Positions 699-37,316 are shown, numbered from the stretch's first letter. The stretch: 64,000 bases of DNA from Candidatus Nomurabacteria bacterium (GCA_963842815.1 CAWJHU010000001.1:264708-328707), one strand, 5' to 3'. The notes: generated from the sequence alone by a model not told the origin. Numbers and translations: made by a program.

Positions 699-882
699 AC
701 AGCTATTTTAACACAAATTACCCATATCAAAAAGACAGATTATTATTTTATACTGCACGGATATTTTTTTGCTAAAAAATTCCTCGTGCTCGCGCCGTCG
801 CGCTCCCAAGGCAGTCTTAAACAACAATCTGTCTTTTTTAAAATTTGTATTTTTGCTTGCATTTTTATTTGTCCTATATATA

Positions 883-1716
883 ATGGACAGCATGTTAGGG
901 GAAAATAAAAACCTAAAAGACACCTCTAAAGATTCCATAAAAGACACTTCTTCTGCCTCCACTTCTTTGACTATGCCTTGGCGAGACCAAGCAGGGTATT
1001 TTAATAAAATAAACAAACTCATTACTGCCCTCTACATAGTAACAGACACGATGGAAAAAGATGAGCCACTGCGTCTAAAGTTAAGGACATTTGGAGTTGA
1101 AATTCTATCAGACATTGCTTCCTTGCCCAAAGGGACATTTGGCAACCTTGATGAAAAAATTACTGCAATTTTGTCCCTTTTGAATATTGCTTTTGACGTT
1201 AGAATGGTCTCTGAAATGAACTTCAATATCCTCAAAAAAGAGTTTTTGGAAATGAAGCAATCTATCCAAGAATTCACTAAACGCAATAATGCTTGGCTGG
1301 AAGAGTTCATAAATACTTCCTCTCCTTTTCAGGGGAAGACTGAGGAGGGGTTCTTGAAAAATTCACCTCACCCCAACCCTCTCCTGATAAAGGAGAGGGG
1401 GCAAGAAATTTCTAAAGGACAGGGTACCAGAATCGGTGTCCAAAAGGGAAGTACTTTAATGAAAGCTTTAAACAAGGTTGAAAGTGGAAATAACAATTTT
1501 GAAATAATAAAGAAGCAAAGAAGAGAATCAATAATAAAAATCATAAAAAATAAACCTATCGGCGCAAGCATAAAGGACATCATTCTTGCCGTTAGAAATC
1601 TCGGAGAAGAGATGGGAGAGAAAACCCTTCAAAGGGAGCTTGTCTCTATGGTAAAGGACAATGTCCTTAAGAAAACCGGAGAGAAACGTTGGTCTCTATA
1701 TTTTATAAATAGTTAG
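883..1716 (+). CDS. hypothetical protein with C-terminal winged-helix-like segment; carries an in-frame REP-A palindrome (alternative upstream start at 769)
   Basis: ORF 769..1716 in the track. ATG at 883 lies directly after TATATAAT; the C-terminus (GASIKDIILAVRNLGEEMGEKTLQRELVSMVKDNVLKKTGEKRWSLYFI) looks like a wHTH. Residues NSPHPNPLLIKERGQ are encoded by the palindromic repeat at 1366-1401. Confidence 0.4.
   Translation: MDSMLGENKNLKDTSKDSIKDTSSASTSLTMPWRDQAGYFNKINKLITALYIVTDTMEKDEPLRLKLRTFGVEILSDIASLPKGTFGNLDEKITAILSLLNIAFDVRMVSEMNFNILKKEFLEMKQSIQEFTKRNNAWLEEFINTSSPFQGKTEEGFLKNSPHPNPLLIKERGQEISKGQGTRIGVQKGSTLMKALNKVESGNNNFEIIKKQRRESIIKIIKNKPIGASIKDIILAVRNLGEEMGEKTLQRELVSMVKDNVLKKTGEKRWSLYFINS
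1366..1401. repeat. REP-A nested palindrome copy (CCTCACCC..CCCTCTCC-loop-GGAGAGGG), in-frame inside CDS 883..1716
   Basis: cacctcaccccaaccctctcctgataaaggagaggggg shares its core with copies at 5871, 6010, 6591 and 21676. Confidence 0.6.
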
Positions 1717-2356: not shown

Positions 2357-5300
2357 ATGAGTAAATTATTAAAAACAAAATTTCTTCTTGGAATTGCGAT
2401 ATTCGCACTTGCTGCTGTTGTAACAACTTCAGCTAATGCCGCTATCACTTCCACATTGAAGAAAGGAATGAGAAGCGCTCAAGTCACAGAACTTCAGAAA
2501 GACTTGAACGTAACTCCAGCTACAGGTTACTTTGGTAATCTTACGTTAGCTGCAGTCAAGGCTTTTCAATCAGCTCACGGTTTAACCGCTGATGGAATCT
2601 TTGGCGCAAAGTCTCGTGCGGTATTATCAGGTGGTACAGTTTCAACTACGTTTCCGGCAGGTTGCACGTCAACCGCAGGATTCAGTTCTCTAACTGGCAC
2701 TCCATGCAATGGCAGCACGAGCACTGTAGTTTCAAATCCTACAGGTCCTCTATCAGTGCAATTAGCTTCTGACAACCCAGCTTCCGGAGTGTTGGTCGGA
2801 GGTCAAGCAACAGGAGACTTGATGCATTTTACTTTCAGCGGTTCTGGAACAATCAACAACATTACACTTCAACGCACAGGTATTACAGCAAACACTGCTC
2901 TTACAAATGTATACCTTTACAATGGAGCATCTCGCATTACAGACTCAGCTTCTGTTAATACGAACGGTGTGATTAGTTTCAACGGTGTCAATTTCCCAGT
3001 AAATGGTTCAGCAGTTATTTCTGTCAAAGCTGATATTGATTCCACCTTGACTGGCGGAACAGTCGGCGTAGCTCTTACTGGTTACACAGTAGCCGGTTCA
3101 ACTAGCGCTACAGTAGCAAATATCTCTGGTAACTTAATGAGCATTACTACAGGAACAAATATCCTCGGTAGTGTTAATTTTTCCACGATAGCTGGCACTA
3201 CTCCTGCTGTTAATGCCGGAGTTTCCCAATATATTCTTTGGACTGATTCAGTACAAGTTAGTACTCACTCCGTCTTAGTGAAGAGCGCGTCTTTCCACTT
3301 TGTCGGTTCAGCTCCAACTGATTCATTGGCAAATGTTGGACTCTTTATTGATGGATCTAAAGTCGCATCTTCAACCGGTATAAATTCACTCGGTTATGTG
3401 GTGTTTGACTTAAGTTCAGTTCCATTCAGTCTAGCGACTGGTTCGCACACAGTGGATGTTCGAGGTGATATCATTAAAGGTTCTTACAGAAGCATTCAAC
3501 TCACTTTGCAGAATGCCGGTGACTTCATGGCTACCGATTCTCAAATTGGCGTAAACATTGCTTCCAAATACAACAACTTGGCGTTTGCCCCAGCTGCTGG
3601 CCCAGCCATCAGTGTCAATCAGGGAACGCTTTCTTTCCAACTTGATCCTACCTTCACTACCATGACAAATGTCACAGGTGGCGCAACCAATGCTTTGATT
3701 GGTAAATACACAGTCTCAGCTTACGGGGAAGATATGAAGATTCAGACTATTGTGCTTACTCCTACCCTTGCTGGTACGGACAATACAAGCGCAAGAAGCA
3801 TAAATAATGTTCAGCTCTTCTACAACGGTTCACAAGTTGGTTCAGCTCAGAGTTATGTATCTACAGCTCTTACCTTTAACCTTGGATCTTCCTTTATTGT
3901 TCCAGCCGGAACAGTTGGCACATTTGAGGTTCATGCGGATATGATAGATGCAGGTGGTGACAATTACATTACTGATACGATTCAAGTCACTTCAGCATCT
4001 GTCACAGTTGCTCAAGGTATGAATTCACTTCAGACGACTACTGCAGCTATCCCTGATTCTACAATCTTGACTGCTGTAACAGGAACACTTTCTGTTGCCG
4101 CAAACAGTGGATATACAGCACAGTCATTCAATCCAAACACAGCTAATGCGAAGATTGCATCATTTGTTCTTCAAAATCAGACTTCTTCTGAGTCAGTTCG
4201 TGTTACGAACTTGAAGATAGGAGTAACTGAAACAGATGCAACTTCCACAAACCTTACAAACTTGAAGACATCTGAAACATCCGGTTCAGGAGCAACTCCA
4301 ATCGCTCTTGCCACAGCAGCTTCTACTGTTGAATCAGTAAACAACTTCTCAGTTGACTTTACTCTTGCACCAGGTGCAACTAAAGTAGTTGATGTGTTTG
4401 CTGATATCGGTGCTGATGTTGCTAATACCATAGCTACCCGTTTATCGGTTACAGCTCGTGGAGCAAGTTCAAATGTTAGTGCTGATCAAAACGATAAAGC
4501 AGGACAAGCCATTACTGTCGCTACTGGAACATTCGCAAACGCAGGAGTAGTTATCTCTTCTACCTCACAACCACAACTCGTGGCTGCTGGTAGTACAGGT
4601 GCTACTGATGCTACAGTTGCAACATACAACTTCAAGTCAGCAAGCGGTTCAGCAACCGTTTCTGAACTTAAGTTCTTGATTACGACCACAGGTGCTCATC
4701 TTTCCGTATCTTCAGTTCGTGTCGGTTCAGTTAGCGCTCCTGTCGTATCAAATATTGCTTACTTGACTAGTCTTAACATCGCAGTTCCAAATGGAGGCTC
4801 CGGTGTTAATGTCCCTGTCTACTTCACTTATGGTCCTGTAGGTACAAACGGAAACACTTCCGGTGATACATCCGAAGTTGAAATGACATACATTAAATAC
4901 ACAGTTGGTGGAACAACTGGTACATTAGTAGGTGGTAGTGCAACTGCAGGGGCAACAGCCGCTGCTACTGGCACTTTGCTTGCAACAGCAACCGCAGGAA
5001 CATTGCCTGCACTTCTCGCAACGGCAGCCGATATTACTGTTAGTTCAAATGCATTATTGCAACCGGGTATGAGGGTTATCGTTTATAACTCTTCCGTCTC
5101 TGCTACTATTCCTGATTCTATCGCTGAAGTTCAATCGCTTTCAGGCACAGCACATGTAAATCTTGTAAGCTTGAAATTAGGTACAGCTGCTCTTGGTGCT
5201 ACATCTACTCTTAACTTCTTCTCAGTACCTATGAACCCAACTTATCCATCTGTTTCAGGTGGAGTTGCTACAGTTGGAAATGGTAAGAGTCGCGATATGG

Positions 5301-5857
5301 CTGGAATTACGGTATTAGGTGGTTCTACTTCTGGTCTTGCTGCTATGCAAATAGTAGGTTCTAAGCCATCTTTGGCAGTCATTGATGCAACCACTTTGCT
5401 TACCAATGGTTTGGTAAAAGTCGGTTCAGTTTCAGTTGCCGCGGATCCTAAGGGTGATATCTCAGTAAGTGCGATTCCTCTTCTCTTCGCTTCAACTGGA
5501 AATGTAGCATCTACTTTGGCAAATGATGGAACGATTGTAGTAAAGAATGCTGCTGATAACAGTACTATTTCTACATCGATTACCGATATCCATGTCTTAA
5601 CAGGAGGGCTAACCGATGGTACCGCAACAGTCAACTTTACTGGTGGTTACACAGTAACCGCTGGCAACACTGTTACCTTTGATATCTATGTCAATACGAC
5701 TGGTGTCACAGGCGGTCCTAGCGCAAATGCTCTATCAATGAAGCTTGGTACAAACACTTCATTCGTATGGACAGATATTGCTGGAAGTGCTACAAGCACA
5801 ACCACAGGTAAACTTATCTACAACTACCCAACCAACTCTTCAGTCATTAACGACTAA
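2357..5857 (+). CDS. large secreted surface protein: signal peptide, N-terminal peptidoglycan-binding (PG_binding_1-like) domain, Cys-bounded loop motif, then ~1000 aa Thr/Ser/Gly/Ala-rich repetitive beta-rich region
   Basis: 1166-aa ORF with N-terminal hydrophobic leader. LKKGMRSAQVTELQKDLNVTPATGYFGNLTLAAVKAFQSAHGLTADGIFGAKS matches the PG-binding fold; GCTSTAGFSSLTGTPC motif follows; then low-complexity repetitive sequence. Confidence 0.65.
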   Translation: MSKLLKTKFLLGIAIFALAAVVTTSANAAITSTLKKGMRSAQVTELQKDLNVTPATGYFGNLTLAAVKAFQSAHGLTADGIFGAKSRAVLSGGTVSTTFPAGCTSTAGFSSLTGTPCNGSTSTVVSNPTGPLSVQLASDNPASGVLVGGQATGDLMHFTFSGSGTINNITLQRTGITANTALTNVYLYNGASRITDSASVNTNGVISFNGVNFPVNGSAVISVKADIDSTLTGGTVGVALTGYTVAGSTSATVANISGNLMSITTGTNILGSVNFSTIAGTTPAVNAGVSQYILWTDSVQVSTHSVLVKSASFHFVGSAPTDSLANVGLFIDGSKVASSTGINSLGYVVFDLSSVPFSLATGSHTVDVRGDIIKGSYRSIQLTLQNAGDFMATDSQIGVNIASKYNNLAFAPAAGPAISVNQGTLSFQLDPTFTTMTNVTGGATNALIGKYTVSAYGEDMKIQTIVLTPTLAGTDNTSARSINNVQLFYNGSQVGSAQSYVSTALTFNLGSSFIVPAGTVGTFEVHADMIDAGGDNYITDTIQVTSASVTVAQGMNSLQTTTAAIPDSTILTAVTGTLSVAANSGYTAQSFNPNTANAKIASFVLQNQTSSESVRVTNLKIGVTETDATSTNLTNLKTSETSGSGATPIALATAASTVESVNNFSVDFTLAPGATKVVDVFADIGADVANTIATRLSVTARGASSNVSADQNDKAGQAITVATGTFANAGVVISSTSQPQLVAAGSTGATDATVATYNFKSASGSATVSELKFLITTTGAHLSVSSVRVGSVSAPVVSNIAYLTSLNIAVPNGGSGVNVPVYFTYGPVGTNGNTSGDTSEVEMTYIKYTVGGTTGTLVGGSATAGATAAATGTLLATATAGTLPALLATAADITVSSNALLQPGMRVIVYNSSVSATIPDSIAEVQSLSGTAHVNLVSLKLGTAALGATSTLNFFSVPMNPTYPSVSGGVATVGNGKSRDMAGITVLGGSTSGLAAMQIVGSKPSLAVIDATTLLTNGLVKVGSVSVAADPKGDISVSAIPLLFASTGNVASTLANDGTIVVKNAADNSTISTSITDIHVLTGGLTDGTATVNFTGGYTVTAGNTVTFDIYVNTTGVTGGPSANALSMKLGTNTSFVWTDIAGSATSTTTGKLIYNYPTNSSVIND

Positions 5858-5870: not shown

Positions 5871-5915
5871 CCTCTCCCAACCCTCTCCTTATTAAGGAGA
5901 GGGCGAAGGGTGAGG
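5871..5915. repeat. REP-A nested palindrome copy
   Basis: cctctcccaaccctctccttattaaggagagggcgaagggtgagg lies immediately downstream of the stop of the 2357..5857 gene. Confidence 0.6.
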
Positions 5916-6590: not shown

Positions 6591-6637
6591 CCCCCTCCTT
6601 TACCACCCCCAACCCCCTCCTTAATTAAGGAGGGAAG
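6591..6637. repeat. REP-A variant palindrome (CCCCCTCC-TTAATTAA-GGAGGG)
   Basis: ccccctcctttaccacccccaaccccctccttaattaaggagggaag lies directly after the hicA stop. Confidence 0.5.
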
Positions 6638-6857: not shown

Positions 6858-9446
6858 ATGAAATTAACTTTAAAAAACGTTTTTCTTTCGGTCGGAATTT
6901 TCGCTTTCACTCTTGCCTTGGCTGGAGCTATTTCAGTAAACCAAGCGCAAGCGGCAGCGCTATGTACAGCTAAAGCTATTGGCGTTTGGAGTGCGTCTAC
7001 TACGTGGACTTGTACCGGTACTACTGATACCACTCCAACTGCAAGTGACCCTGTAGTAATTGCTTCCGGTTTTACTGTGACTGTGGATGGAATGGATGCC
7101 GCTGCGTCTGTTAATATTAACAATGCCGGAGCAGCCACGGGCATAACTATTAGTGGTGGAAATTCTCTCACAGTATCGGGTGCAGTAAACTTAAACGCTC
7201 CATCAGCGGGAGGTACTACTACTCTGGCTGTTGGTATCGGCACATTAACTGTCGGCACCGTCGGCACTCCGGCTAATTTGACTATTACCGCAGGAGATGC
7301 AACTGAAATTTCAACTGTCACTCTTGGCACTACTGGAACCATAACTGTTCACGGCAGTATTGCTTTCGGCGGAGATGCTACGGCTGCCAGATTAGCCGTC
7401 ACAGGCGCCGGCGCAATTAGCGTCACGGGAGATTTTGGTTCTAATGGAACTTTAACTGGTGGCACTAGTACGATTACTTTTAACGGAACCGGCGCCCAAG
7501 CAATGGGAACTTACACAACATACAAAAATGTTACTATTGCCGGAACTGCTAACACAGTAACTGCAGCTGGGGCAACAACTGTTGGTACTGTACTTACTGT
7601 TACGACCGGTACTTTAGATTTGGCGGACAGTACCTTTACGGTAACGGGAGCCACAAGTATTGCCAGCGGAGGAACATTAAAATTTTCTTCTCCAACCAAC
7701 CTTAAAACTTTCACGGGTGATGTAACTAACGCAGGCATTTGGAATGAAACAGCTGCTACTGCTATTACTTTTGCCGGCAGTTTGACTAATACCGGTACAT
7801 ATACAGCAAGCTCAGGTGTACATACATTTTCTGGAGGAAGTAAAACTATTACCGGCACCGGAACTGCTGCTATTTCCATTCCAAATTTGACTATTTCCGG
7901 AGCAACAACTAATAGTGGTATATTAACCGTTTCCGCTGATTTGGCTGGTGCTAGCTCTTTGACGAATGACGCGGGAGCTACTCTAAATATCGGAGGTGTT
8001 TCAGATATCACTACTCTCATTCCAGCGGCAAGCGCCAATACTATTAATTATAATGGTACAGGACAAACCGTACACGCGGCAGGCACCAATGCTTACTGGC
8101 ACTTAGGTTTCGGTGGTACAGGAGCAATTGCTCTTCCAGGTTCGGTTGGCGGAATAAGCGGGAATTTGGAACTTTCTAATACAGCTAATTTAACTACGGG
8201 GGCTAATCTCACAATCGCAGGCACAGTACACGTTGCCACTGGGAGCACTCTCACTGTCGGAGCATATACTCTTTCCGTTGGTGGAACTACTACTATTGAC
8301 CAGAACGGGTCATTAGTATTTTCATCAGTTACCAACCCTGGCAAAACTTTCACAGGCGCGGTTACGGTCAATGGTGTTTGGAATGAAGCGTACGCTGTTA
8401 CTCCAACCTTTCATGCCGGTTTGACGAACAATGCTACCACATGGACAGCAAGCACCGGAGTACACACATTCAACGGAACTGCTCAAATTATTACTGGGAA
8501 TACTGCCACGGTTATTCCAAGTGTAACTATTACCGGAACAACAACCAATAATGGGACATTAACTGTCGGCACGGCTTTGGTTTGCACGGCAGCCCTCACT
8601 AACGGCACTACTGGTGTTTTGAATATCGGTGGCACGTCTTCCGGTACATTGGCGGCAGCTACATCTGGCAACACTGTTGTTTACTATAAAACTGACGTGC
8701 AGACAGTTTTGGCGCCATCAACAAGTTATTACAATCTTACTTTGAATGGCACTGGAGACAAAACTCTTACTAACATCGCAGTCTCTAACACGCTAACTGT
8801 AAGTGGAGCAATAGCGGATTTGGAAACCACGGGTTCAACAGCCAAATATTTGACATTAGGAAATGTTTTGATGCGCGCAGGTGTTTGGGGCGCAACTGGC
8901 TCTGGCGCAACTTATGTAAATGATACTTATTTTTACGGCAACGCAAAACTTACAGTTGCCTCTGGTAGAAAAATTTCCGCTACGGGAGATATAGATACAA
9001 CTCCTACACCAACAGTTACAAGTTCAGGTACAACAACAACCACTACCACCACAACAACCACCCCAACTACGACAACTACCACTACGGCAACTGCTCCAGG
9101 TCTTATTATCACTGCAGTTCCAAATGCAGTAGCCATCCCCGGCTGTGACAATAGGACCACTGGCTTCAGCACCACCACCGGCGTATCCTGCGCAGGAAAC
9201 GCAGGCACGGGCGTAACAGCTACTTACAACCTCGGTACGGTCACCTTGAAAAACGGAAGCAGAGGAGCAGCCGTTATGGAATTGCAAAGATTCCTGAATG
9301 ATAAATTAAGTCTAGGCTTGGCAGTAGATGGGAAACTAGGCCCGAAGACAATTGCTGTCATCAAGAAATGGCAAAAAGCCCAAGGCTTGGTAGCCGATGG
9401 TCTTGTGGGAGCGAAGACTAAAGCGAAAATGCTCGCAACTCAATAA
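6858..9446 (+). CDS. large secreted surface protein: signal peptide, long Gly/Thr/Ala-rich parallel-beta-helix-like repeats, poly-Thr linker, Cys-bounded motif and C-terminal peptidoglycan-binding domain
   Basis: 862-aa ORF. Repeated TVTGA../TLNIGG.. units; TTTTTTTTTTTPTTTTTTTATAP linker encoded at 9040-9100; GCDNRTTGFSTTTGVSC motif; C-terminal LKNGSRGAAVMELQRFLNDKLSLGLAVDGKLGPKTIAVIKKWQKAQGLVADGLVGAKT reads as PG_binding_1-like. Confidence 0.65.
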   Translation: MKLTLKNVFLSVGIFAFTLALAGAISVNQAQAAALCTAKAIGVWSASTTWTCTGTTDTTPTASDPVVIASGFTVTVDGMDAAASVNINNAGAATGITISGGNSLTVSGAVNLNAPSAGGTTTLAVGIGTLTVGTVGTPANLTITAGDATEISTVTLGTTGTITVHGSIAFGGDATAARLAVTGAGAISVTGDFGSNGTLTGGTSTITFNGTGAQAMGTYTTYKNVTIAGTANTVTAAGATTVGTVLTVTTGTLDLADSTFTVTGATSIASGGTLKFSSPTNLKTFTGDVTNAGIWNETAATAITFAGSLTNTGTYTASSGVHTFSGGSKTITGTGTAAISIPNLTISGATTNSGILTVSADLAGASSLTNDAGATLNIGGVSDITTLIPAASANTINYNGTGQTVHAAGTNAYWHLGFGGTGAIALPGSVGGISGNLELSNTANLTTGANLTIAGTVHVATGSTLTVGAYTLSVGGTTTIDQNGSLVFSSVTNPGKTFTGAVTVNGVWNEAYAVTPTFHAGLTNNATTWTASTGVHTFNGTAQIITGNTATVIPSVTITGTTTNNGTLTVGTALVCTAALTNGTTGVLNIGGTSSGTLAAATSGNTVVYYKTDVQTVLAPSTSYYNLTLNGTGDKTLTNIAVSNTLTVSGAIADLETTGSTAKYLTLGNVLMRAGVWGATGSGATYVNDTYFYGNAKLTVASGRKISATGDIDTTPTPTVTSSGTTTTTTTTTTTPTTTTTTTATAPGLIITAVPNAVAIPGCDNRTTGFSTTTGVSCAGNAGTGVTATYNLGTVTLKNGSRGAAVMELQRFLNDKLSLGLAVDGKLGPKTIAVIKKWQKAQGLVADGLVGAKTKAKMLATQ

Positions 9447-9465
9447 TTATTATTAGAAACAATTT

Positions 9466-9486
9466 CCCCTGACCCTGGGTCAGGGG
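9466..9486. repeat. REP-B palindrome copy (CCCCTGACCCTGGGTCAGGGG) followed by T-run; likely also acts as terminator
   Basis: Perfect 21-bp palindrome 20 bp after the stop at 9446, followed by attttgttttgtt. Confidence 0.7.
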
Positions 9487-9532
9487 ATTTTGTTTTGTTG
9501 CCTTTTTTAATTTTTTTGGTATAATAACCACT

Positions 9533-10021
9533 ATGAAAAACTCAAAGGGCAAGAATGTGTGGATAGGAGTGGCCGTGATATTAGTTGTAGCCATAATTGT
9601 TTTTCTGTTCAGTTTGTTAAAAAAGGAAACCGTCGGAGTAGATGGAATAATTTCACCCAACAGTAACAATACTGCTCTTTTTCCTCCGTCAACCCTAGAT
9701 ACCAGCGGTAGCTCTGTCCAAGGAACAAAACCAATCTCTATTTCTTATATTGATGCCTTGGCAAAATATGCCAATAAAAGAATTCAATTGGATAAAAATT
9801 GTCAGGCTTTTCCAAACACTGTTACCTACAAAGACAACACGGGAATTATGATAGACAACCGTTCTCCGGAAGTTCGCACGATAAAAATCGGAACAAGCTT
9901 TACGATAAAAGCTTGGGGATTTAAAATAATTACTCTGCCCAACGTTGTTCTCCAATCAAAAACCATCTTCGTTGATTGCGATAAATCTCTAAACGTAGCC
10001 ACCATTCTCGTCCAGGAATAA
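9533..10021 (+). CDS. hypothetical membrane-anchored/secreted protein
   Basis: 162-aa ORF with an N-terminal TM helix (VWIGVAVILVVAIIVFLFSLL) and no recognisable domain. Confidence 0.4.
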   Translation: MKNSKGKNVWIGVAVILVVAIIVFLFSLLKKETVGVDGIISPNSNNTALFPPSTLDTSGSSVQGTKPISISYIDALAKYANKRIQLDKNCQAFPNTVTYKDNTGIMIDNRSPEVRTIKIGTSFTIKAWGFKIITLPNVVLQSKTIFVDCDKSLNVATILVQE

Positions 10022-10105
10022 AAACTAAAATTCCCCTGACCCAGGGTCAGGGGAAGAGAGGTTTTCCACATAATTTAAGGCACTTGTAATGTTATAATAA
10101 GTAGA

Positions 10106-10810
10106 ATGACATATAGAAAAACTCCTCTAATGTCTGGAGAATATTTTCATGTTTATAATAGAGGGAACAGTAAACAAGAAATTTTTTTAGATGATGAAGA
10201 TAGGAGTCGTTTTGTAAAATTACTTTACCTTTCCAATTCAAAAAAGTATATTAATTTCCGTGACGATATAGTAGGGCAAAAAATAGACGCTTTTGATTTT
10301 GGAAGAGGAGAACCCGTTGTATTCATTGGTGCATGGGTTTTAATGCCTAACCATTTTCATATTTACATAACTTCCCCTGACCCTGGGTCAGGGGAAACAG
10401 AAGAAAGCAAGAAAAATAAGAGGAATAAAGAAAATATTGCCTTTTTTATGAATAAACTTTGCTCAAGTTACGCTAAATATTTTAATAAAAAATATAGCCG
10501 TACAGGGTCTCTTTTTGAAGGGCCATTCAAATCTACTCATATTGAGGACGATAGTCAGGCGAAATATCTTTTTTCATATATACATCTTAATCCAATAAAA
10601 CTCATTGACTCAGGATGGAAAGATAATGGTATTAGTAATATAAAAACGGCGTTAGAACACTTGAATACATACAAGTGGAGTAGTTATCAAGATCATCGTG
10701 GGGTTTTAAGGAAAGAAAATAAAATTCTTAAATTAAATTCTTTTCCTGAATATTTTTCTGATATAAAAGATTTTGATTCAGAAATTATTTCTTGGTTGCA
10801 ATATATGTAA
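10106..10810 (+). CDS. REP-associated tyrosine transposase (RAYT), IS200/IS605 Y1 transposase family; contains an in-frame REP-B insertion
   Basis: GEYFHVYNRG, HUH motif in LMPNHFHIYI and catalytic Tyr region YIHLNPIK. SPDPGSG between the HUH and Tyr motifs is encoded by the palindrome at 10374-10394. A paralogue lies at 36636..37322. Confidence 0.7.
   Translation: MTYRKTPLMSGEYFHVYNRGNSKQEIFLDDEDRSRFVKLLYLSNSKKYINFRDDIVGQKIDAFDFGRGEPVVFIGAWVLMPNHFHIYITSPDPGSGETEESKKNKRNKENIAFFMNKLCSSYAKYFNKKYSRTGSLFEGPFKSTHIEDDSQAKYLFSYIHLNPIKLIDSGWKDNGISNIKTALEHLNTYKWSSYQDHRGVLRKENKILKLNSFPEYFSDIKDFDSEIISWLQYM
10374..10394. repeat. REP-B palindrome copy inserted in-frame within the RAYT CDS
   Basis: cccctgaccctgggtcagggg encodes SPDPGSG; the paralogous RAYT2 lacks this segment. 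Confidence 0.7.
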
Positions 10811-10899
10811 ATAATTTTTCCCCTGACCCAGGGTCAGGGGAAGAGAGGTTTTCCACAGAAATTGTTGGGATTGGAATGTTTTTAGAATATAATTAGAGA

Positions 10900-11526
10900 A
10901 TGGAAAAAATAAAAATGTTCTTTGCTCACAAAATTTTTAAAATATTGAAGTGGGCTTTTTTAATTTTGGTCGGATTATATTTAATTCTGATTATCGGTCG
11001 GGTAATTTTTTTGAACAACAAAGCCAAAACAGATGCGCAAGTGATAAAAATTCATAATACCAAACTTACTCTGGATGATGTAATGGGCAAAAATCTTCCG
11101 CCAGACCCGGGGGCCCTAGCTGATGCGACCGTGCAGGGGATTGATGCAAATAATAACGGTATTCGGGATGACGTTGAACTGGCTATTTTTAATGCGTATC
11201 CAAATTCTGCCAAAACCCGCGCCGTGCTTTTGCAGTATGCGCTGGCGTTGCAGATGGAGTTTGCACAATCAATAATAAATAAAGAAATAGTAACAGTGGT
11301 CGCAGAAAAAACATCTGCTGGATATTATTGTATTAGTCAAATAACTTCCAGAGTAGATATGAAAAAGTTTATTGAAATTGGTGATAAATTACACAACTTT
11401 ATTGAAAATAAACAAATAAATACAGAAGAAAGAAAAAAAGCTGAAACAGATTTTTATAAAGGCAACCTTGGTAGTTATGAATTACCTTCCGAATGTGATA
11501 TAGACTTAAATAAATTACAAAATTAA
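10900..11526 (+). CDS. hypothetical membrane-anchored protein
   Basis: 208-aa ORF with an N-terminal TM segment (ILKWAFLILVGLYLILIIGRVIFL); no recognised domain. Confidence 0.4.
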   Translation: MEKIKMFFAHKIFKILKWAFLILVGLYLILIIGRVIFLNNKAKTDAQVIKIHNTKLTLDDVMGKNLPPDPGALADATVQGIDANNNGIRDDVELAIFNAYPNSAKTRAVLLQYALALQMEFAQSIINKEIVTVVAEKTSAGYYCISQITSRVDMKKFIEIGDKLHNFIENKQINTEERKKAETDFYKGNLGSYELPSECDIDLNKLQN

Positions 11527-11538: not shown

Positions 11539-14500
11539 ATGAAATTAAAATCAGTAATCATATTATTGTTGTTTTTGTTACCACATTTACTTTTTGCCTC
11601 AACTTGTTCCAGTAATGGTTACACAGTCCTAACTGTTAATGGAATATTTACTGATGAAACTGGAGCAAAGAAAAATTCTGATAAACTGAAATATTATTTT
11701 GAAAATACTTACAACAACCAACCACTTATCGTTGATTTTCTTTATAATCAAACCCACCTCGCCGGTTTTGGGGATGTTATTGACTATGTAAAACAAGGGT
11801 TTTTTGATCAAAAATCGGATTATGACCTGGTGGAAATGCTGAATGACGCCAGTCAAAAAGTCACAACTCAAAAACTTCTCCTCGTTGCCCACTCTCAGGG
11901 CAATTTTTATGCCAATAACTTTTATGATAAAACTGCGTCACAGCCTGGAGGAGTTCCGAGCCAATCTATCGGTGTGTATGGTGTAGCCACTCCTGCCAAT
12001 CGTGTGGCCGGCGGAGGAAGATATTTAACTTCCGATACGGATAAAATTATTGCTGGTTTGGTCGGAGGTACTTTGGCTAGAACTATTATGTCGCCTAACG
12101 CACACATTGTTTTGCAAGAGGGTGATGACAAAAATGGGCATGATTTTTCCGGTGTTTATTTAAAATATCAAAGCGACAAAATTGTTTCCGATATTAAATC
12201 ATCCCTTGATAAACTTCAAAATAATGACGAGCAGGAATCGCAGGACCCTTGTATTTCTCCGCCGGAACTTACCGTTTTTCATAAGGCAGAAGGTGTGGCT
12301 CTTACGTCCGCTGATTTTCTTATAAATAACACAAAAAATGCTGCCGTTTATATTGGAAATGGCATATACAATACCGGCTTGGCGATTGGTAATGCTTTTT
12401 CGGGATTATTTGCCAATGTAGCCGAAATTTTGCCAAGTGGCAATAGTTTGACGACCCTTTCTCCCGATGTTTTGGAACCGACGGATAATCCTTTGGCAAG
12501 TTCTTTCCCGAATTCTTCTGTAAATCAGGAGCAGACATCAGAAATAATAGGAGAAACAGTTACAATTCCAACCACGGAGGCAACGCCTCCGTATACAGAA
12601 AATGTGACGAGTGACAAAATAATAACTACAACCGAATCCATTCCTGTTTCCAATATTCCCAAAGACGAAGAACCAATTTTTGAATTTCGCCGGGGTAATA
12701 ATGGCGCATCAATATCTCAGTCTGAATCCCAATCTGAAACTAAATCCGGGACAGGTTCATCCGGAGAAGAACAGGGAGGACAAGGAGGAAATAATAATTC
12801 ATCAGCTCCGGATATTATTCCTCCAATTATCACCCTGCTCGGCAATAATCCCGAAGTGGTTGTAAAAGGTTCTGCGTACACTGATGCCGGCATTATGGTT
12901 ACTGATGCAGTTGATAGCGCACCCACTTTCACAATGGAAGGAACGGTAAATATCAATACTGTCGGTGTTTACACTATTACCTATACCGCAAAAGATTCTT
13001 CCCAAAATATCGCTACCGCAACACGCACGGTGATAGTTGATGATGGGGCAAAATTAAATAGTCCTAATTTTGTCACTGTCTCCGGCAACTATGCCTATGT
13101 GGTTTCAAGCGCCGGCAATTCTTTTGAAATTATAGATATTTCCAATCCTTCCACTCTAGTGCATAAAAGTTCTCTAGTGCACAACAACGACAACATACAA
13201 CTTTATTCTCCCGGAGGAGTTGCCGTTTCCGGTGATTATGCTTACGTAGTTTCTTACAGTAATAATTTAAATGTTATTGATATCAGCAATCCTCTTTTAC
13301 CTACTATTAAAAGCACTTTAAAAAACGGCGATGGCGGGGCGCAACTTATTCATCCGAATTTTATAACTATTTCCGGCAATTACGCATATATTATTTCCTA
13401 TGGAGGACAGAATGTTGAAATAGTGGATATTTCCGACCCGATTTATCCTGCCCACAAAGGTTCGTATTATATAAATTCGCTTTCCGCGCCGACTTCTTTA
13501 TTTGTTTCCGGCAATTATATGTATTTGACATTTTCTGTTGTAGGGCAAAGCAGCGGAGGTCTTCAAATTTTAGATATTTCTAATCCAGCGCAGCCTGTTT
13601 TAAAAAGCACCGTGAATGATGGTTCCGGTGGAGCAACCATTTCCAATCCGCAATTCGTTTTTGTCTCCGGCAACTATGCTTATATTGCTTCTCGAGGGAC
13701 CAACACTCTTGAAATTATTGATGTTTCAAATCCCGGTTCACCGATTCACAAAGGAAAAATAACCGTTGGTGTTGCCCCGATTTCCGTATCCATTTCCGGC
13801 AATTATGCCTATGTAGCTTCTTTTGTCGGGAGCGCCCTTGAGGTCATAGATATTTCTGACCCAACTAATCCTATTCACAAAGGGAGTTTAGCGAATGGCG
13901 TTTATAATTCGGCTCTTTCTTACCCAACTTCTATTTTTATTTCCGGCAACCTTGCTTATATTTCTTCTTCAATGAGCAAAGCCTTGGAAGTTGTAAATAT
14001 TTCCGACCCGGCTAATCCGATTCATTTAAACAAAATATTAAATGGCGAATTTAATCATACAGACCCGCCTGTCATAATCCCTTCAGCTCCTCCGGCAGAT
14101 ACTACTCCGCCTGTAATTTCTGCGCTTTCTATTTCTCCGTCGCCGGCTGTTTCCGGCTATGCGAAAATTGGCGACACCATAACCCTTTCCATCACCGCTG
14201 ATTCTGCGGGATATACGGCGAAGGCTATCAGCATTAATAATGTTTCCGTAACAAATTTTACCGATAATGGAAATGGGATGTATACAGCTACCTACACTGT
14301 TTCATCCGGAGATAATGATGTGGTTTCCGGCACTATTCCTGTCAGTGTTGTTTTGACTGATGCGGCTGGAAATTCAAATATTGCATATACCACAGTGATA
14401 GCAAATAAATTAAAAATTGACGCCCATGAACCGATTCTCATTTTTGCCAATGTTACTTCAGCGACTACTATCGATGCCACATTCAGCGAAGATATTGATG

Positions 14501-14736
14501 GAAAAACAGTCAATTCTACCGGCACTGAATTTACAGTTTCAGGGCATCCGGTTTTGAGCGCTCATGAATTAGAAGGTGTCGTGACGTTAACTCTCGGAAC
14601 GGCTATCGGAGCAGGGGAAAAACCCGATGTCACATTTCAAAGTACTTTATTTAAAGATGTTGCCGGCAATGAAGCCATAAGTCCGGCCACGGTAACGGCA
14701 ATAAATGACGTGATTTCTCCTCCGTCTTTGGAATAA
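11539..14736 (+). CDS. large secreted protein: N-terminal alpha/beta-hydrolase (lipase/esterase-like, GxSxG = AHSQG), Ig-like (DUF5011/HYR-like) domain, ~8 LVIVD-type beta-propeller repeats, C-terminal Ig-like domains
   Basis: Signal peptide; LLLVAHSQGNFYANNFYD nucleophile elbow; PPIITLLGNNPEVVVKGSAYTDAGI...GVYTITYTAKDSSQNIATATRTVIV; repeated SGNYAYVxSxxxNxLEIIDISNPxxPxHKGS units. Confidence 0.6.
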   Translation: MKLKSVIILLLFLLPHLLFASTCSSNGYTVLTVNGIFTDETGAKKNSDKLKYYFENTYNNQPLIVDFLYNQTHLAGFGDVIDYVKQGFFDQKSDYDLVEMLNDASQKVTTQKLLLVAHSQGNFYANNFYDKTASQPGGVPSQSIGVYGVATPANRVAGGGRYLTSDTDKIIAGLVGGTLARTIMSPNAHIVLQEGDDKNGHDFSGVYLKYQSDKIVSDIKSSLDKLQNNDEQESQDPCISPPELTVFHKAEGVALTSADFLINNTKNAAVYIGNGIYNTGLAIGNAFSGLFANVAEILPSGNSLTTLSPDVLEPTDNPLASSFPNSSVNQEQTSEIIGETVTIPTTEATPPYTENVTSDKIITTTESIPVSNIPKDEEPIFEFRRGNNGASISQSESQSETKSGTGSSGEEQGGQGGNNNSSAPDIIPPIITLLGNNPEVVVKGSAYTDAGIMVTDAVDSAPTFTMEGTVNINTVGVYTITYTAKDSSQNIATATRTVIVDDGAKLNSPNFVTVSGNYAYVVSSAGNSFEIIDISNPSTLVHKSSLVHNNDNIQLYSPGGVAVSGDYAYVVSYSNNLNVIDISNPLLPTIKSTLKNGDGGAQLIHPNFITISGNYAYIISYGGQNVEIVDISDPIYPAHKGSYYINSLSAPTSLFVSGNYMYLTFSVVGQSSGGLQILDISNPAQPVLKSTVNDGSGGATISNPQFVFVSGNYAYIASRGTNTLEIIDVSNPGSPIHKGKITVGVAPISVSISGNYAYVASFVGSALEVIDISDPTNPIHKGSLANGVYNSALSYPTSIFISGNLAYISSSMSKALEVVNISDPANPIHLNKILNGEFNHTDPPVIIPSAPPADTTPPVISALSISPSPAVSGYAKIGDTITLSITADSAGYTAKAISINNVSVTNFTDNGNGMYTATYTVSSGDNDVVSGTIPVSVVLTDAAGNSNIAYTTVIANKLKIDAHEPILIFANVTSATTIDATFSEDIDGKTVNSTGTEFTVSGHPVLSAHELEGVVTLTLGTAIGAGEKPDVTFQSTLFKDVAGNEAISPATVTAINDVISPPSLE

Positions 14737-14754
14737 AGCCCCGTCGGGTGTTTT

Positions 14755-14774
14755 CCCTGACCCTGGGTCAGGGG
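14755..14774. repeat. REP-B palindrome copy (one C short)
   Basis: ccctgaccctgggtcagggg lies 19 bp after the stop at 14736. Confidence 0.65.
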
Positions 14775-14787
14775 AAACACAAAAAAA

Positions 14788-14823
14788 GGGGCTTTTGAAA
14801 AAGTCCCTTTTTCAAAAGCCCCT
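14788..14823. terminator. bidirectional Rho-independent terminator (GGGGCTTTTGAAAAAG/CTTTTTCAAAAGCCCC hairpin flanked by A- and T-runs)
   Basis: 16-bp perfect stem lying between convergent genes 11539..14736 (+) and 14830..15219 (-). Confidence 0.7.
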
Positions 14824-19152: not shown

Positions 19153-19189
<37 letters not shown>

Positions 19190-20932: not shown

Positions 20933-20975
<43 letters not shown>

Positions 20976-24063: not shown

Positions 24064-25194
24064 ATGGCACAAAAAGTTTTAAAAAGAATAGATTGGCTCT
24101 TGGTTTTTTTTGTGGTTCCCATAATCTTGGCCGGTCTTTTCACCATGAAGTCATTTATTCCTCAGGAAAATACGATTAATTTTTTTGATAAGCAGATTAT
24201 CTGGATTATTTTATCTCTTTTTGTTTTTTTCGCTTTTTCTTTTATTGATTTTGGATTTTTGCGTCGGACGGATGTATTGGTGGCTTTATTTTTGATATTT
24301 TGTGGGTTACTCATCATTTTATTTATTATCGGCCATTTGGTAAATGGAGCCCAAAGCTGGTTTTCTTTCGGCGTTTTTTCATTTCAGCCTGCGGATATGA
24401 TGAAGCTTGTGCTTATTCTCATTTTAGCCAAATACTTTTCTCGCCGGCATGTGGAAATCCGGGACATCAAGCATATTTTTATTTCCGGGTTCTATGCTTT
24501 TATTCCTTTTGTTTTGATTTTGCTCCAGCCTGATTTTGGTTCGGCCATGGTTATATTTTTTATATGGCTCGGTATGGTGCTGGTTTCCGGAATTTCTAAA
24601 ATGCATCTGCTTTTTGTTTTTTTATCAGGGGCAATTATTTTTGCTTCTCTTTGGGTCTTTGCTTTTGCCCCATATCAGAAAGAGCGCATTTTGAGTTTTA
24701 TAAATCCGTTGGCGGACATCCATGCCTCCGGCTATAACGCTTCCCAATCCACCATTGCCGTCGGCTCCGGGCAGGTTTTAGGCAAGGGCTTGGGTTTTGG
24801 CACCCAATCGCGATTAAAATTCTTACCGGAACCCCAAACCGATTTTATTTTTGCCGCCTTCTCCGAAGAATGGGGATTTGTTGGTTCCTGTTTTCTTCTT
24901 TTACTTTTTGGGCTCGTTCTTTGGAGAATTCTCCATTGCGCTTCCCTTGAGGCTTCTAATTTTGAAATGCTTTTTGGCATAGGAATTGCTATTTTTTTTA
25001 TGAGTCATATACTCATAAACATTGGCATGAATATAGGGCTCTTGCCGGTAACGGGCATTCCGTTGCCGTTTATGAGTTATGGAGGTTCGCATTTGCTTAC
25101 TGAATTTATGGCGCTTGGAATTTTAATGAGCATGCGCAAATATGCCAGGCCGGCGCACCGAGACGATATGAAGAATGAATTTTTGGGGATATAA
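24064..25194 (+). CDS. ftsW: SEDS-family peptidoglycan glycosyltransferase (FtsW/RodA)
   Basis: About 10 TM helices; conserved QPDFGSAMV, SGYNASQSTIAVGSGQVLGKGLGFGTQS, FIFAAFSEEWGFVG and GLLPVTGIPLPFMSYGGS segments. Confidence 0.85.
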   Translation: MAQKVLKRIDWLLVFFVVPIILAGLFTMKSFIPQENTINFFDKQIIWIILSLFVFFAFSFIDFGFLRRTDVLVALFLIFCGLLIILFIIGHLVNGAQSWFSFGVFSFQPADMMKLVLILILAKYFSRRHVEIRDIKHIFISGFYAFIPFVLILLQPDFGSAMVIFFIWLGMVLVSGISKMHLLFVFLSGAIIFASLWVFAFAPYQKERILSFINPLADIHASGYNASQSTIAVGSGQVLGKGLGFGTQSRLKFLPEPQTDFIFAAFSEEWGFVGSCFLLLLFGLVLWRILHCASLEASNFEMLFGIGIAIFFMSHILINIGMNIGLLPVTGIPLPFMSYGGSHLLTEFMALGILMSMRKYARPAHRDDMKNEFLGI

Positions 25195-25197
25195 ATT

Positions 25198-25219
25198 TTC
25201 CCTGTCCCCGGGTCAGGGA
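25198..25219. repeat. degenerate REP-B copy (TCCCTGTCCCCGGGTCAGGGA)
   Basis: Imperfect palindrome related to CCCCTGACCCNGGGTCAGGGG, 4 bp after the ftsW stop. Confidence 0.45.
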
Positions 25220-25230
25220 AAAATAAAATT

Positions 25231-26064
25231 ATGCAAATTATTGACGGTAAAAAAATAAGAGATAAAATTTTAGCTGAAGTAAAAAAAGAAGTTGTAGTTT
25301 TGCCTTTTCAGCCCATTTTTTGTGATGTTCTGGTGGGGGAAGACCCTTCTTCGGTGCAATATATTAAAATGAAAGCGAAAACTGCCGAGTCTGTGGGTAT
25401 AAAATTTCACAATGCTTCTTTCCCGCGCGATATAAGTACGGAAGATTTAATAAAAGAAATAAAAATTTTAAATAAAATACCTAATATGTGTGGAATTATT
25501 GTGCAACTTCCGCTGCCAGAAACGCTTAATTCTAGAAAAATCTTAGATGCCATTGACCCATCTCTAGATGTTGATTGTCTAGGAACGATAGCAAGTGAAG
25601 AATTTTACAGTGGCAAAACCACAACAGGGAGTTCCCCCACTGCTCTTGCCTGCTTGAAATTATTGGACCTTACCGGTATTTCTCTGGAAAATAAAAAAAT
25701 AGCAGTTTTAGGACAGGGAGATTTAGTAGGCAAACCGACGGTCGCCCTGCTCCAATTCCGCGGTTTTCAGCCGGATATTATAATAAGTACAAGCGAAAAC
25801 AAGGAGAGAATTATAAAAGAAGCGGATATTATAATTTCTGGTATGGGTAAAAGTAAATATATTAAAGGTGATATGATAAAAAAGGGGGCAGTGCTGATAG
25901 ATGCGGGAACTTCTGAGTCTGAAGGTGGAATTGTGGGAGATATTGATTTTGAATCCGTAAAAAATGTGGCAAGTTTTATTTCTCCTGTGCCTGGAGGAGT
26001 AGGTCCGGTAACAGTAGCAATGCTTCTTAATAATGTGCTTAATGTGGCGAAAAATAAACAATGA
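25231..26064 (+). CDS. folD: bifunctional methylenetetrahydrofolate dehydrogenase/cyclohydrolase
   Basis: IIDGKKIRDKILAEV, VGEDPSSVQYIKMK, IVQLPLPE, VLGQGDLVGKP, GGVGPVTVAMLL motifs. Confidence 0.85.
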   Translation: MQIIDGKKIRDKILAEVKKEVVVLPFQPIFCDVLVGEDPSSVQYIKMKAKTAESVGIKFHNASFPRDISTEDLIKEIKILNKIPNMCGIIVQLPLPETLNSRKILDAIDPSLDVDCLGTIASEEFYSGKTTTGSSPTALACLKLLDLTGISLENKKIAVLGQGDLVGKPTVALLQFRGFQPDIIISTSENKERIIKEADIIISGMGKSKYIKGDMIKKGAVLIDAGTSESEGGIVGDIDFESVKNVASFISPVPGGVGPVTVAMLLNNVLNVAKNKQ

Positions 26065-30220: not shown

Positions 30221-30259
30221 AGTTTCTATTTTCTCCTTTATTTTGTTATACTTTAACCA

Positions 30260-30768
30260 TGCAGGATAAATTTTTCGGTTCAAAATTAAACAGCGTTTTG
30301 CTTCTAATTCTCATTATTTTAGTGGCTGGGGCCATATATATTATGCTTCAAAATAAAGAAACATACCTGAATATTTTTGGTATTTCCCCTGACCCTGGGT
30401 CAGGGGAACAAGAGCCGGTGCAGAACAAAGATGGAATTTTAGGGAACAAGGATGATTTAATTTCTTTTTCCATTTCACCTTACACTAAAGTTCATGGAAT
30501 TTTGTCCTATAGGGGAGTGATTCAAGGCGGATATTTTTTTGAAGGCAATATTTTGATAAACATTCTTGATGCTAAAAAAAATATTTTAAAGAAAAGCAAT
30601 GCAGTTGCTAAGACAGAATGGACGACATCAGGATCAGTCAATTTCGAAGGAAATGTTGATTTTACCGGACTTCCAAAAGGTTCTGCTTATTTTGAAATCC
30701 ATAACGACAACGCTTCCGGCCTTCCGAAAAATGATAAATCCATTTTAATCCCAATTATTATTGAATAA
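30260..30768 (+). CDS. hypothetical membrane-anchored protein carrying an in-frame REP-B palindrome
   Basis: Preferred start MQDKFFGSKL at 30260; the track ORF 30097..30768 begins inside the upstream gene. N-terminal TM; ISPDPGSGE is encoded by the palindrome at 30386-30406. Confidence 0.45.
30386..30406. repeat. REP-B palindrome copy in-frame in CDS
   Basis: cccctgaccctgggtcagggg. Confidence 0.7.
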
Positions 30769-36435: not shown

Positions 36436-36595
36436 TGATTTCATCTGGCAAACATACAATGTATGCATACACTAGGGTCGGGGTGTACGTTAGCAAGAGA
36501 AAGCAAAATAAAATAAGTTTGTTTTTTATGTAATAAAATCTCTAGCCAAAAACTAGGGATTTTATTATTTTAGGAAGTTGGAGTTGTTGTTGTAA

Positions 36596-37316
36596 CTACG
36601 GAGGCGTTGCCTCCGTAGCCGTCTCCGTGGATGAATTATTCGTCGTTAAAACTTAGCCATTCAAACAGCTCTTTTTTATAATCAGTCAGTTTTTTAAAAT
36701 AAGCGGGAAATTCTGATGGATTTATAATTTTAAATTTTCCATCTTTGTATTCTTCCATGCTTGAATATGGATATTCAAAAACATATTGTAAAAGTTTCGT
36801 TAAAGGTTTGTTTCTTTCTTCTTTCCAATTTTTGTCTATCAATTTAGCGGGATTTAAATGTATATAGGAATATATGTATTTTAAATATCTATCGTTGTTT
36901 ATGTGGATTGATTTAAATACTCCTTCATATAATTTGCCTGTTCGTTCATATTTTTTATTGAAATACATTGAATAACTAGTCATTAATTTATGTATGTATT
37001 TAGAAATTCCATTTTCTGTCTTTTCACGAACAAGAATATGAAAATGATTTGGCATTAAGCAATATGCTCCTATATTAACTATAGTTTTTCCACGATCAAA
37101 ATTTTTGCCAATATTTCTTAACTCTATACTTTTTGTTGTATTACAAATATGCATTAAAAACAAAAAGTGCTCATAATCTTTTTTATCTATAAAAATAACC
37201 CTTTTTTCCGTTCCACGATTATATAAATGATAATACTCGTTTGGAGCGAAAGATTGTTTTCTTAAGGCCATTTGTTGATTATAACAAAAGGGGACTACGG
37301 AGGCAACGCCTCCGTG
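36596..37316 (-). mobile_element. REP-RAYT unit 2: second Y1 (RAYT-like) transposase gene bracketed by REP-C palindromes (ACGGAGGC-GTT/AAC-GCCTCCGT) and by an imperfect ~25-bp direct repeat of the adjacent gene terminus
   Basis: CTACGGAGGCGTTGCCTCCGTAG at 36596-36618 and CTACGGAGGCAACGCCTCCGTG at 37295-37316. ttaggaagttggagttgttgttgtaac (36571-36597) matches ttaagaggtcggagttgttgttgtagt (37325-37351) at 22 of 25 positions. Confidence 0.6.

Follow-up and report, generated by a model that had tools for sequence, protein, structure and literature searches.

Introduction

To our knowledge, work on RAYT/REP systems has dealt almost exclusively with Proteobacteria and Cyanobacteria, and our literature search found no description of such systems in Patescibacteria. 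The closest described arrangements are the REPtrons and TIRtrons, in which a Y1 gene is flanked by its cognate repeats (PMC3733652). The TnpA-REP enzyme of E. coli is monomeric and Mn-dependent; it binds the REP hairpin and cuts and rejoins beside it, with Y115 as catalytic tyrosine and N119 as metal ligand (PMC3479197).

Palindromes of this kind can also lie inside coding sequences. In-frame REPs located between the HuH motif and the Y of tnpA-REP genes have been called a 'unique feature' of subclass 2.4, and the variable insertions that this subclass carries in the same region were judged peripheral to the active site (PMC6006769). In other genes, in-frame palindromes are represented by the Rickettsia RPEs and by other REPs (PMC3733652).

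Here we analyse a RAYT-like Y1 HUH nuclease gene and its associated palindromes in a stretch of 64,000 nucleotides from a Candidatus Nomurabacteria bacterium (GCA_963842815.1, CAWJHU010000001.1:264708-328707), hereafter the window; positions are counted from its first letter. A first-pass annotation, made from the sequence alone, had drawn attention to this locus, and its claims are taken up where our results bear on them.

Results

The nuclease gene and its product

The RAYT-like gene occupies positions 10106..10810 on the + strand and encodes a protein of 234 aa. The two hallmarks by which it had been recognised as a Y1 enzyme, LMPNHFHIYI and YIHLNPIK, are both present, and their catalytic residues align with those of E. 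coli TnpA-REP (4ER8). Indeed, the HUH motif (H83-F84-H85, in LMPNHFHIYI) places H83/H85 opposite H59/H61, Y158 in YIHLNPIK, the catalytic tyrosine by alignment, falls opposite Y115, and N162 aligns with the metal ligand N119. The HUH motif and Y158 are invariant across our protein alignment (A1), as is the whole segment Y158-I-H-L-N-P163, which is the class 2 Y---NP signature. The 234-aa protein has an RRM-like HUH nuclease fold, and in the structure model its HUH motif lies on strand 83-89.

The profile check proposed in the first-pass annotation gave a divided answer. The protein itself stayed below threshold both for Pfam Y1_Tnp (PF01797; 15.4 bits for a cut-off of 23, E 0.021) and for NCBIfam NF047646 REP_Tyr_transpos (36.9 bits for an equivalog cut-off of 80, E 3e-9), but 25 of 26 sampled close relatives matched Y1_Tnp (E up to 1, the best being 7.6e-9). 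A profile search of the PDB returned E. coli TnpA-REP (4ER8) as sole match, in an alignment spanning the HUH and Tyr motifs. The homologues, more than 6,500 in number, are found essentially all in Patescibacteria (Paceibacterota, Nomurabacteria and related groups). Judged from these sequence comparisons, the family-level assignment to the Y1 HUH nucleases is solid.

The protein ends in a helical C-terminal tail of ~70 aa that carries WSSY (W191-S-S-Y). The Tyr-rich C-terminus that had been described as typical of RAYTs does not define them; the tail is the SS-motif tail of subclass 2.1 (PMC6006769). A Pfam search of the 234-aa protein gave no match to Bac_DnaA_C or to an HTH in this tail. On the DNA side, a putative -10 hexamer, TATAAT, with TGT just before it, is located at 10093..10098 on the + strand, 7 nt ahead of the ATG; the promoter scan omitted it because its -35 is weak. 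This arrangement suggests a leaderless or near-leaderless RAYT mRNA, which would start downstream of the upstream hairpin described below.

Repeats and palindromes in the window

The gene is bracketed by identical 40-bp direct repeats, as the first-pass annotation had stated: the 40-mer TTCCCCTGACCCAGGGTCAGGGGAAGAGAGGTTTTCCACA is found at 10031-10070 and 10818-10857 and nowhere else in the window, with 0 such matches expected by chance. The upstream repeat (10031..10070), which starts 10 nt past the stop codon of ORF 9533..10021 and 75 nt ahead of the RAYT start codon, is composed of a 25-nt palindrome, TTCCCCTGACCCAGGGTCAGGGGAA (10031-10055), a 6-nt spacer and TTTTCCACA (10062-10070), a DnaA-box-like sequence that ends both repeats. 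The downstream repeat (10818..10857) starts 8 nt past the RAYT stop codon and carries the palindrome at 10818-10842 and TTTTCCACA at 10849-10857; a predicted promoter of gene 10900..11526, TTGGGA-17-TATAAT (10865-10893), follows it.

The palindrome was said to be dispersed in the window, and this holds. In its 21-nt form, CCCCTGACCCWGGGTCAGGGG (the hairpin motif is also written TTCCCCTGACCCWGGGTCAGGGGAA), it occurs in the 64-kb window with 0 mismatches at 9466, 10033, 10374, 10820 and 30386 and with 1 mismatch at 14754. These six copies are joined by a degenerate one at 25198, TTTTCCCTGTCCCCGGGTCAGGGAAAA, which differs from the 21-mer at 4 positions and is palindromic nonetheless; the 21-nt palindrome gave 0 matches in 100 shuffles. 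In computed folding, each copy forms as ssDNA an 11-bp stem with a 3-nt loop (~-12 kcal/mol, z ~-4). When the palindrome is read as coding sequence, two of the three frames are open.

Five of the seven copies, and not four as previously counted, lie 4-20 nt past stop codons (9466, 10033, 10820, 14754 and 25198). Like both 40-bp repeats, the dispersed copies of this group are given without strand. The copy at 9464..9488 follows the stop codon of ORF 6858..9446 by 18 nt, has a T-run next to it and is the sole window copy to resemble an intrinsic terminator of the + strand. At 14748..14780, 12 nt past the stop codon of ORF 11539..14736, the copy with 1 mismatch has its palindrome lengthened to a 15-bp stem and adjoins a separate bidirectional terminator hairpin (14787-14823). 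The degenerate copy (25196..25222) sits between the stop codon of ORF 24064..25194 and the start codon of ORF 25231..26064. The remaining two copies, both on the + strand, are in coding sequences: an exact copy at 30384..30408 in CDS 30259..30768, and a copy with a central T at 10372..10396, in frame inside the RAYT gene itself (codons 89-97). That the 10374 copy is in frame inside this gene had been overlooked, and we consider it the most informative feature of the locus.

All copies have hairpin feet that are T-rich on the 5' side and A-rich on the 3' side (TTCCCC...GGGGAA). The GT[AG]G foot is absent, as no GTAG or GTGG adjoins the stem in any copy. REPIN inverted doublets, the occurrence of which the first-pass annotation had left to be checked, do not occur in the window, where nearest neighbours are 341-567 nt apart; among the relatives, doublets were found in L002 (3' end), L067, L095 (upstream), L096, L129, L151 and L161. 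The earlier interpretation of the locus as a REP/REPIN-RAYT arrangement is supported in part, by the aligned catalytic residues and the flanking cognate palindrome; it is qualified by the sub-threshold profile scores, the missing GT[AG]G foot, the lack of REPIN doublets in the window and a copy number that is low and concentrated near the gene.

A hairpin inside the gene

The palindrome at 10372-10396 encodes T89-S-P-D-P-G-S-G-E97, starting 3 codons past the HUH histidines, and a variable K/E-rich linker comes after TSPDPGSGE. In the structure model, pLDDT averages 46 over residues 91-100 and is <50 at residues 93-106; the intragenic copy is predicted to fall in a disordered, low-confidence loop that connects the HUH strand to the helix after it.

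The comparison across lineages covered 80 loci of species-representative genomes and 80 metagenomic ones. The alignment variants at the loop, SPxPGxGE, SHMSDMWE, SRTPGVRE and SPKSDLGE, differ in sequence, and each back-translates to a palindrome. Nearly all orthologues of the clade have a 9-15-bp stem at the internal position, the sequence of which is lineage-specific (TTCCCCTAAGTCGGACTTAGGGGAA, TTCCCACATGTCTGACATGTGGAAA, CACGCCTTGCCCTGGGCAAGGCGCG and TACCGAAGCAAGGCTTCGGTA are examples). Stems of at least 8 bp are present in 52 of 66 distinct coding sequences, and the clade that keeps the internal hairpin at this one fixed position extends over 56-77% identity.

Covariation was measured over the 75 nt past the HUH codons of 45 loci, in an alignment made by MAFFT with no fitting to the structure. 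In this alignment 91.7% of the cells are paired, compared with 72.3% in shuffles, and 10 of the 12 stem pairs have changes on both sides. The covariation score reaches 0.543, compared with 0.183 when shuffled (0 of 500 shuffles scored as high), and controls in which the partner columns were slid stayed at or below 0.156. As G-T and A-C mismatches are balanced in number, with no strand bias, there is no evidence for a strand-specific RNA structure in the intragenic hairpin, and this candidate was dropped. Rfam at gathering thresholds, run over the whole window, matched rRNA and tRNA only.

The internal copy is not indispensable. It has decayed in L002, L138 and L140, both flanking copies being perfect there, and the hairpin is lacking from the internal position in the whole sister clade, including L043 and L059.

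Three copies that change together

We then considered the flanks of 58 distinct orthologous loci, seeking in each the locus's own internal hairpin with 2 mismatches allowed. Of 55 loci, 49 have it again 35-105 nt ahead of the start codon, and of 52 loci, 42 have it on or around the stop codon, whereas the hairpins of other loci, used as control, are found in 29 of 2000 cases upstream and 30 of 1882 at the 3' end (~1.5%); since metagenomic loci share descent, such locus counts do not equal numbers of independent events. Because the own hairpin recurs at both places, the order of the unit is hairpin, promoter, N-terminal HUH half, hairpin, C-terminal Tyr half, hairpin.

The central base of the palindrome is the same between copies in 64 comparisons. 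When it differs, the change is complementary in 53 and non-complementary in 2, which indicates copying in both orientations rather than point mutation. In L095, the upstream and internal copies have identical mismatches in common. Of 38 loci with three copies, 17 have all of them identical; the odd copy is the upstream one in 9, the internal one in 8 and the downstream one in 3. No copy being preferentially the odd one out, the idea of a 'master copy' was abandoned.

Gene neighbourhood and inheritance

In ~45 loci the RAYT gene is found between homologues of g6858/g9533 and of g10900-g11539...g17604. The conserved upstream neighbours are homologues of ORFs 6858..9446 and 9533..10021, and the conserved downstream neighbours are homologues of 10900..11526, 11539..14736, 15988.., 16944.. 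and 17604... Loci L043 and L059, which belong to the insert-less clade, have this same neighbourhood. Across the ~45 syntenic loci the RAYT protein is 58-77% identical, and the nuclease is at least as conserved as its neighbours. The gene is thus old and vertically inherited, and is not a hopping insertion sequence. Consequently, the 40-bp repeats must owe their identity to recent homogenisation rather than to a recent insertion; a fresh target-site duplication by an insertion sequence is ruled out by the synteny. In the window, this RAYT clade is represented by a single copy, together with one paralogue that is 38% identical.

Copies outside the unit

A stretch of 5.3 kb around the gene holds five of the seven window copies, and the part between 30.4 and 64 kb holds none. 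In the related loci, 502 kb of flanking sequence contain 16 copies outside the gene unit, or ~0.3 per 10 kb, and among the 22 related loci whose flanks extend to 8 kb or more, 18 have zero. With so few copies outside the unit, dissemination is weak. Several of these extra copies, in L088, L101 and L112, sit at the site equivalent to 9466, just past the stop codon of the g6858 homologue, and each has the sequence of its own lineage.

The second coding sequence with a palindrome gives another example. CDS 30259..30768 encodes a Gmad2 Ig-like domain protein with a transmembrane helix. This helix is followed by a variable linker, in which the 30384-30408 copy falls; it encodes SPDPGSGE, the frame being that used in the RAYT gene. 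Most orthologues of this Gmad2-like protein have an unrelated linker at the equivalent site, and one that is 77% identical (P0128, on the L081 contig) has no palindrome. L161, L162 and L163 carry different palindromes at the exact site; one of these three is a 47-bp inverted doublet, and another is the hairpin type that surrounds the RAYT genes of L083 and L093. This turnover points to overwriting in place.

The paralogue of the RAYT gene, at 36636..37271, belongs to the sister clade, which has lineage-specific flanking hairpins of its own and no internal one. The hairpin of this second unit is ACGGAGGCGTTGCCTCCGT; the paralogue and the RAYT gene of one and the same genome are therefore associated with different palindromes.

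Discussion

The locus is probably a REPtron/TIRtron-like unit, made of a fixed-locus, 'domesticated' Y1 HUH nuclease of the RAYT/TnpA-REP class and of its cognate GC-rich palindrome. The palindrome has three fixed positions: one ~35-105 nt ahead of the start codon, one at the stop codon and one within the gene, in frame. Further copies are few, nearby and mostly just past stop codons, with an occasional one in the flexible linker of another protein. What we observed are the fold and catalytic motifs, the three-site architecture, the lineage-specific covariation, the conserved neighbourhood and the low copy number outside the unit. From these we infer an enzyme that acts on the hairpins, a copy-and-replace mechanism and the neutrality of the internal copy.

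How could such a unit change? With E. coli TnpA-REP taken as the model, the present enzyme most likely binds the hairpin where it is extruded on ssDNA, cuts beside it and rejoins. Cutting and rejoining would copy or replace nearby hairpins in either orientation, such that all copies within a genome stay alike while their sequence drifts between lineages (concerted evolution). As the palindrome is perfect, both strands would give the same substrate, and this fits the orientation-free pattern of the central base. The perfect match of the two 40-bp repeats would then be the latest product of this homogenisation, and the internal copy presumably a tolerated passenger in a permissive loop, continually refreshed. 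The cleavage chemistry and cleavage site of the E. coli enzyme are not confidently transferable to the present one, because these hairpins are devoid of the GT[AG]G guide tetranucleotide required by the E. coli enzyme. In principle, short-patch gene conversion, or selection on three independent binding sites, could also bring about concerted change with no copying by the enzyme.

The long retention of the intragenic hairpin raises the question of a function. The nuclease could bind the hairpin of its own gene, as ssDNA or in the mRNA, and so limit its own expression, or the gene-embedded copy could serve as a protected template that re-seeds the flanking and dispersed copies. Such long retention is what a functional element would show: the position is fixed clade-wide over 56-77% identity, with stems of at least 8 bp in 52/66 sequences and strong covariation, and, besides the 3' copy, this is the only one inside the predicted transcript. 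However, the hairpin has decayed in L002, L138 and L140 next to perfect flanks, and it is absent from the sister clade even where the neighbourhood is the same (L043, L059). Moreover, an RNA structure would lead us to expect the strand bias of G-T versus A-C that we did not see, and a template is difficult to reconcile with the lack of a master copy (odd one upstream 9, internal 8, downstream 3). Taken together, we hold these two variants of a functional hairpin to be unlikely, at about one chance in five. If the internal copy were functional, the gene would be a minimal enzyme-plus-substrate replicator contained in one ORF and kept throughout the history of a large Patescibacteria clade.

Two other explanations would do without a domesticated unit. 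The palindromes could be ordinary host regulatory hairpins, namely terminators, stabilisers of mRNA 3' ends or the site of some other protein, to which the nuclease is linked only incidentally. The location of 5/7 copies 4-20 nt past stop codons goes in this direction, as does the terminator-like score of the copy at 9465-9487 with its T-run. Nevertheless, a sense-strand T-tract accompanies only 1/7 copies, two are in coding sequences and the 14754 copy adjoins a separate, genuine-looking terminator; the hairpin sequence is lineage-specific and tracks the nuclease at three positions, and the palindrome of the paralogue is a different one. We therefore regard host hairpins as quite improbable, although some copies possibly act as secondary terminators, which is compatible with the domesticated unit that we favour. 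The Y1 transposase fold, the hairpins at both ends and the identical 40-bp repeats also recall an autonomous insertion sequence of the IS200/IS605 type, with the hairpins as its ends and the 40-bp repeat as its duplicated target. Against this, the window has a single copy of the clade, and its location is syntenic in ~45 loci, which leaves this explanation scarcely any credit.

Considered as a REPtron/TIRtron-like unit, the locus has several implications. Dozens of enzyme lineages, each with a different cognate hairpin written three times around and inside the gene, constitute a natural experiment, and matched protein-hairpin pairs could yield a recognition code for a ssDNA nuclease. Hairpins that are overwritten in place at orthologous positions bear on the persistence of REPs and on their co-evolution with the enzyme. 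The presence of a REP in its own transposase gene extends beyond the single subclass for which it had been called unique, and streamlined genomes tolerate palindromes written into their proteins.

Among the known systems, E. coli TnpA-REP (YafM, 4ER8; subclass 2.2, Bertels group 2) is the one recovered by the profile search of the PDB, at an identity of ~12-14% to the 234-aa protein. The present enzyme differs from it by its extra helical C-terminal tail of ~70 aa and falls below the NCBIfam equivalog cut-off. The hairpins differ as well, being perfect, symmetric palindromes that have neither a GTAG foot nor a bulge, unlike the E. coli REPs. Furthermore, where E. coli has hundreds of REPs, the window has 7 copies, of which the flanking ones are direct repeats and one is inside the gene. 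The criterion for the RAYT class is typically >100 REPs per genome; here, 7 copies were counted in a 64-kb window, and they are clustered near the gene, which, like the ~0.3 copies per 10 kb outside the unit in related loci, points to low abundance.

Subclass 2.4 (Bertels group 4; Cyanobacteria and Bacteroidetes; Quentin et al.) also has an in-frame REP between HuH and Y, in the beta3-alphaC region. In both cases a peripheral variable loop holds the internal copy, and flanking REPs are present in addition. The motifs nonetheless distinguish the two, subclass 2.4 having YIxNNP and WQ and no tail, whereas the present protein has YIHLNP, F-E (LFEGxF) and an SS-motif tail (PMC6006769 Table 1). The hairpins found here have neither the GT[AG]G foot nor the 'double foot' of those of subclass 2.4, and in place of variable insertions there is one hairpin, at a clade-wide fixed position, that co-varies with the flanks.

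The resemblance to subclass 2.1/TIRYT (Bertels group 1) is a matter of motif comparison only, and includes NH[YF]H, Y[IV]HLNP, the serine motif and a length of ~238 aa. As in the TIRtrons of this subclass, the flanking repeat is of low copy number, and some TIRs are self-complementary (De Nocera et al. 2013, PMC3733652). On the other hand, the TIR consensus GGGGWSAS was not seen here, subclass 2.1 was reported to be without nearby REP-like hairpins whereas hairpins flank the present gene, and an intragenic copy, not reported for subclass 2.1, is present here. Read from the motif table only, the enzyme fits subclass 2.1-type motifs and not the E. coli type, 2.2.

The Rickettsia RPEs are likewise short palindromic in-frame inserts that add a short peptide in a tolerant region of a protein. 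They measure ~100-150 bp and have no known cognate transposase, whereas the inserts described here, of 25 nt, are linked with one particular nuclease gene. IS200/IS605 elements (IS608, ISDra2) have in common with this unit a Y1 HUH enzyme acting on ssDNA and the recognition of subterminal hairpins. Those elements are multi-copy and mobile, with distinct ends, a Y---Q motif and often tnpB; the present unit is syntenic and single-copy, and has the same palindrome at both ends.

In conclusion, Y1 genes with cognate repeats, in-frame REPs in subclass 2.4 and in-frame palindromes elsewhere are known already. What differs here is the association of subclass 2.1 motifs with a single intragenic hairpin that holds a fixed position and co-varies with both flanks, in Patescibacteria.

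A second RAYT-like unit beside a repeated gene end

The window holds, besides the RAYT gene at 10106..10810, a RAYT-like paralogue on the minus strand (36636-37271), 38% identical to it and devoid of an intragenic hairpin. This paralogue is flanked in inverted orientation by a palindrome of its own, ACGGAGGCGTTGCCTCCGT (37297-37315) and CTACGGAGGCAACGCCTCCGTAG (36596-36618), which differs from that of the RAYT gene and occurs nowhere else in the window. In the clade to which the paralogue belongs, matching lineage-specific hairpins lie about 48 nt upstream of the gene and at its stop codon, as found under a strict test in 20 of 49 cases.

The last 24 nt of a surface-protein gene (37328..40267, minus strand), ACAACAACAACTCCGACCTCTTAA at 37328-37351, recur directly past the paralogue unit as ACAACAACAACTCCAACTTCCTAA (36570-36593, same strand). 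Both copies encode TTTTPTS followed by a stop, and their four differences are all synonymous. The unit of about 740 bp therefore looks, from its sequence, like a cassette inserted at the 3′ end of the surface-protein gene, where the end of that gene is duplicated or replaced by a surrogate.

The window also has three copies of a palindrome that belongs to a third family, CCCTCTCCT...AGGAGAGGG (and CCCTCCTTAATTAAGGAGGG), and is unlike the palindrome of the RAYT gene. One copy (1377-1399) lies within CDS 769..1716, another (5881-5903) shortly after the stop of 2357..5857, and the last (6615-6634) precedes a DnaA-box-like motif at 6638. We found no cognate nuclease gene for this family within the window.

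The DnaA-box-like motif

Both copies of the 40-bp repeat that brackets the RAYT gene end in a DnaA-box-like motif, (A)GTT(A/T)T(C/G)CACA(G), at 10062-10070 and 10849-10857. Of 48 orthologous RAYT loci, 25 have this motif on the 3′ side of the downstream hairpin, at a distance of 4-15 nt, against a background of 1.5% per 45 nt; in the insert-less clade, the sister clade that includes the paralogue, 4 of 47 loci have it. The window carries further copies, at 1993, 6638, 17496, 29239, 44367 and 48437 on the plus strand and at 17216 on the minus strand. The motif is also found 22-38 nt upstream of the TATAAT hexamers of other genes, and a cluster of three stands ahead of the tRNA-Thr at 48547. Domain searches of the RAYT-like protein and its relatives revealed no DnaA-like domain. 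The motif may stand outside the nuclease system, as a promoter-upstream element or as a genuine DnaA box.

Ribosomal RNA and tRNA genes

No 16S rRNA match was obtained anywhere in the window. The 23S rRNA match (18654-22261) spans 3,608 nt versus 2,925 nt for the model, so that about 680 nt of it are insertions; a tRNA-Glu(TTC) is predicted inside it (19937-20015), and a 5S rRNA follows (22304-22411).

Hairpins in related loci

At three related loci, half-relics of another hairpin type are found directly 5′ of the present intragenic hairpin (L134:4245-4319, where TTCCCCTGAA is followed by CCCCGAAGACGGTCTTCGGGG; L110:6668-6742; L001:10241-10315), which suggests that the intragenic site underwent successive replacement events. 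In related genomes the cognate hairpin also occurs as inverted doublets: in L095 upstream of the RAYT gene, at the 3′ end of L002, at L067:4285-4332 and in a Gmad2-like gene (L161:499-620). One of these doublets, 47 bp long, lies in frame within the Gmad2-like gene, at the very site of the single copy in the window (30384-30408, in CDS 30259..30768). These doublets form longer palindromes and are, in this respect, REPIN-like.
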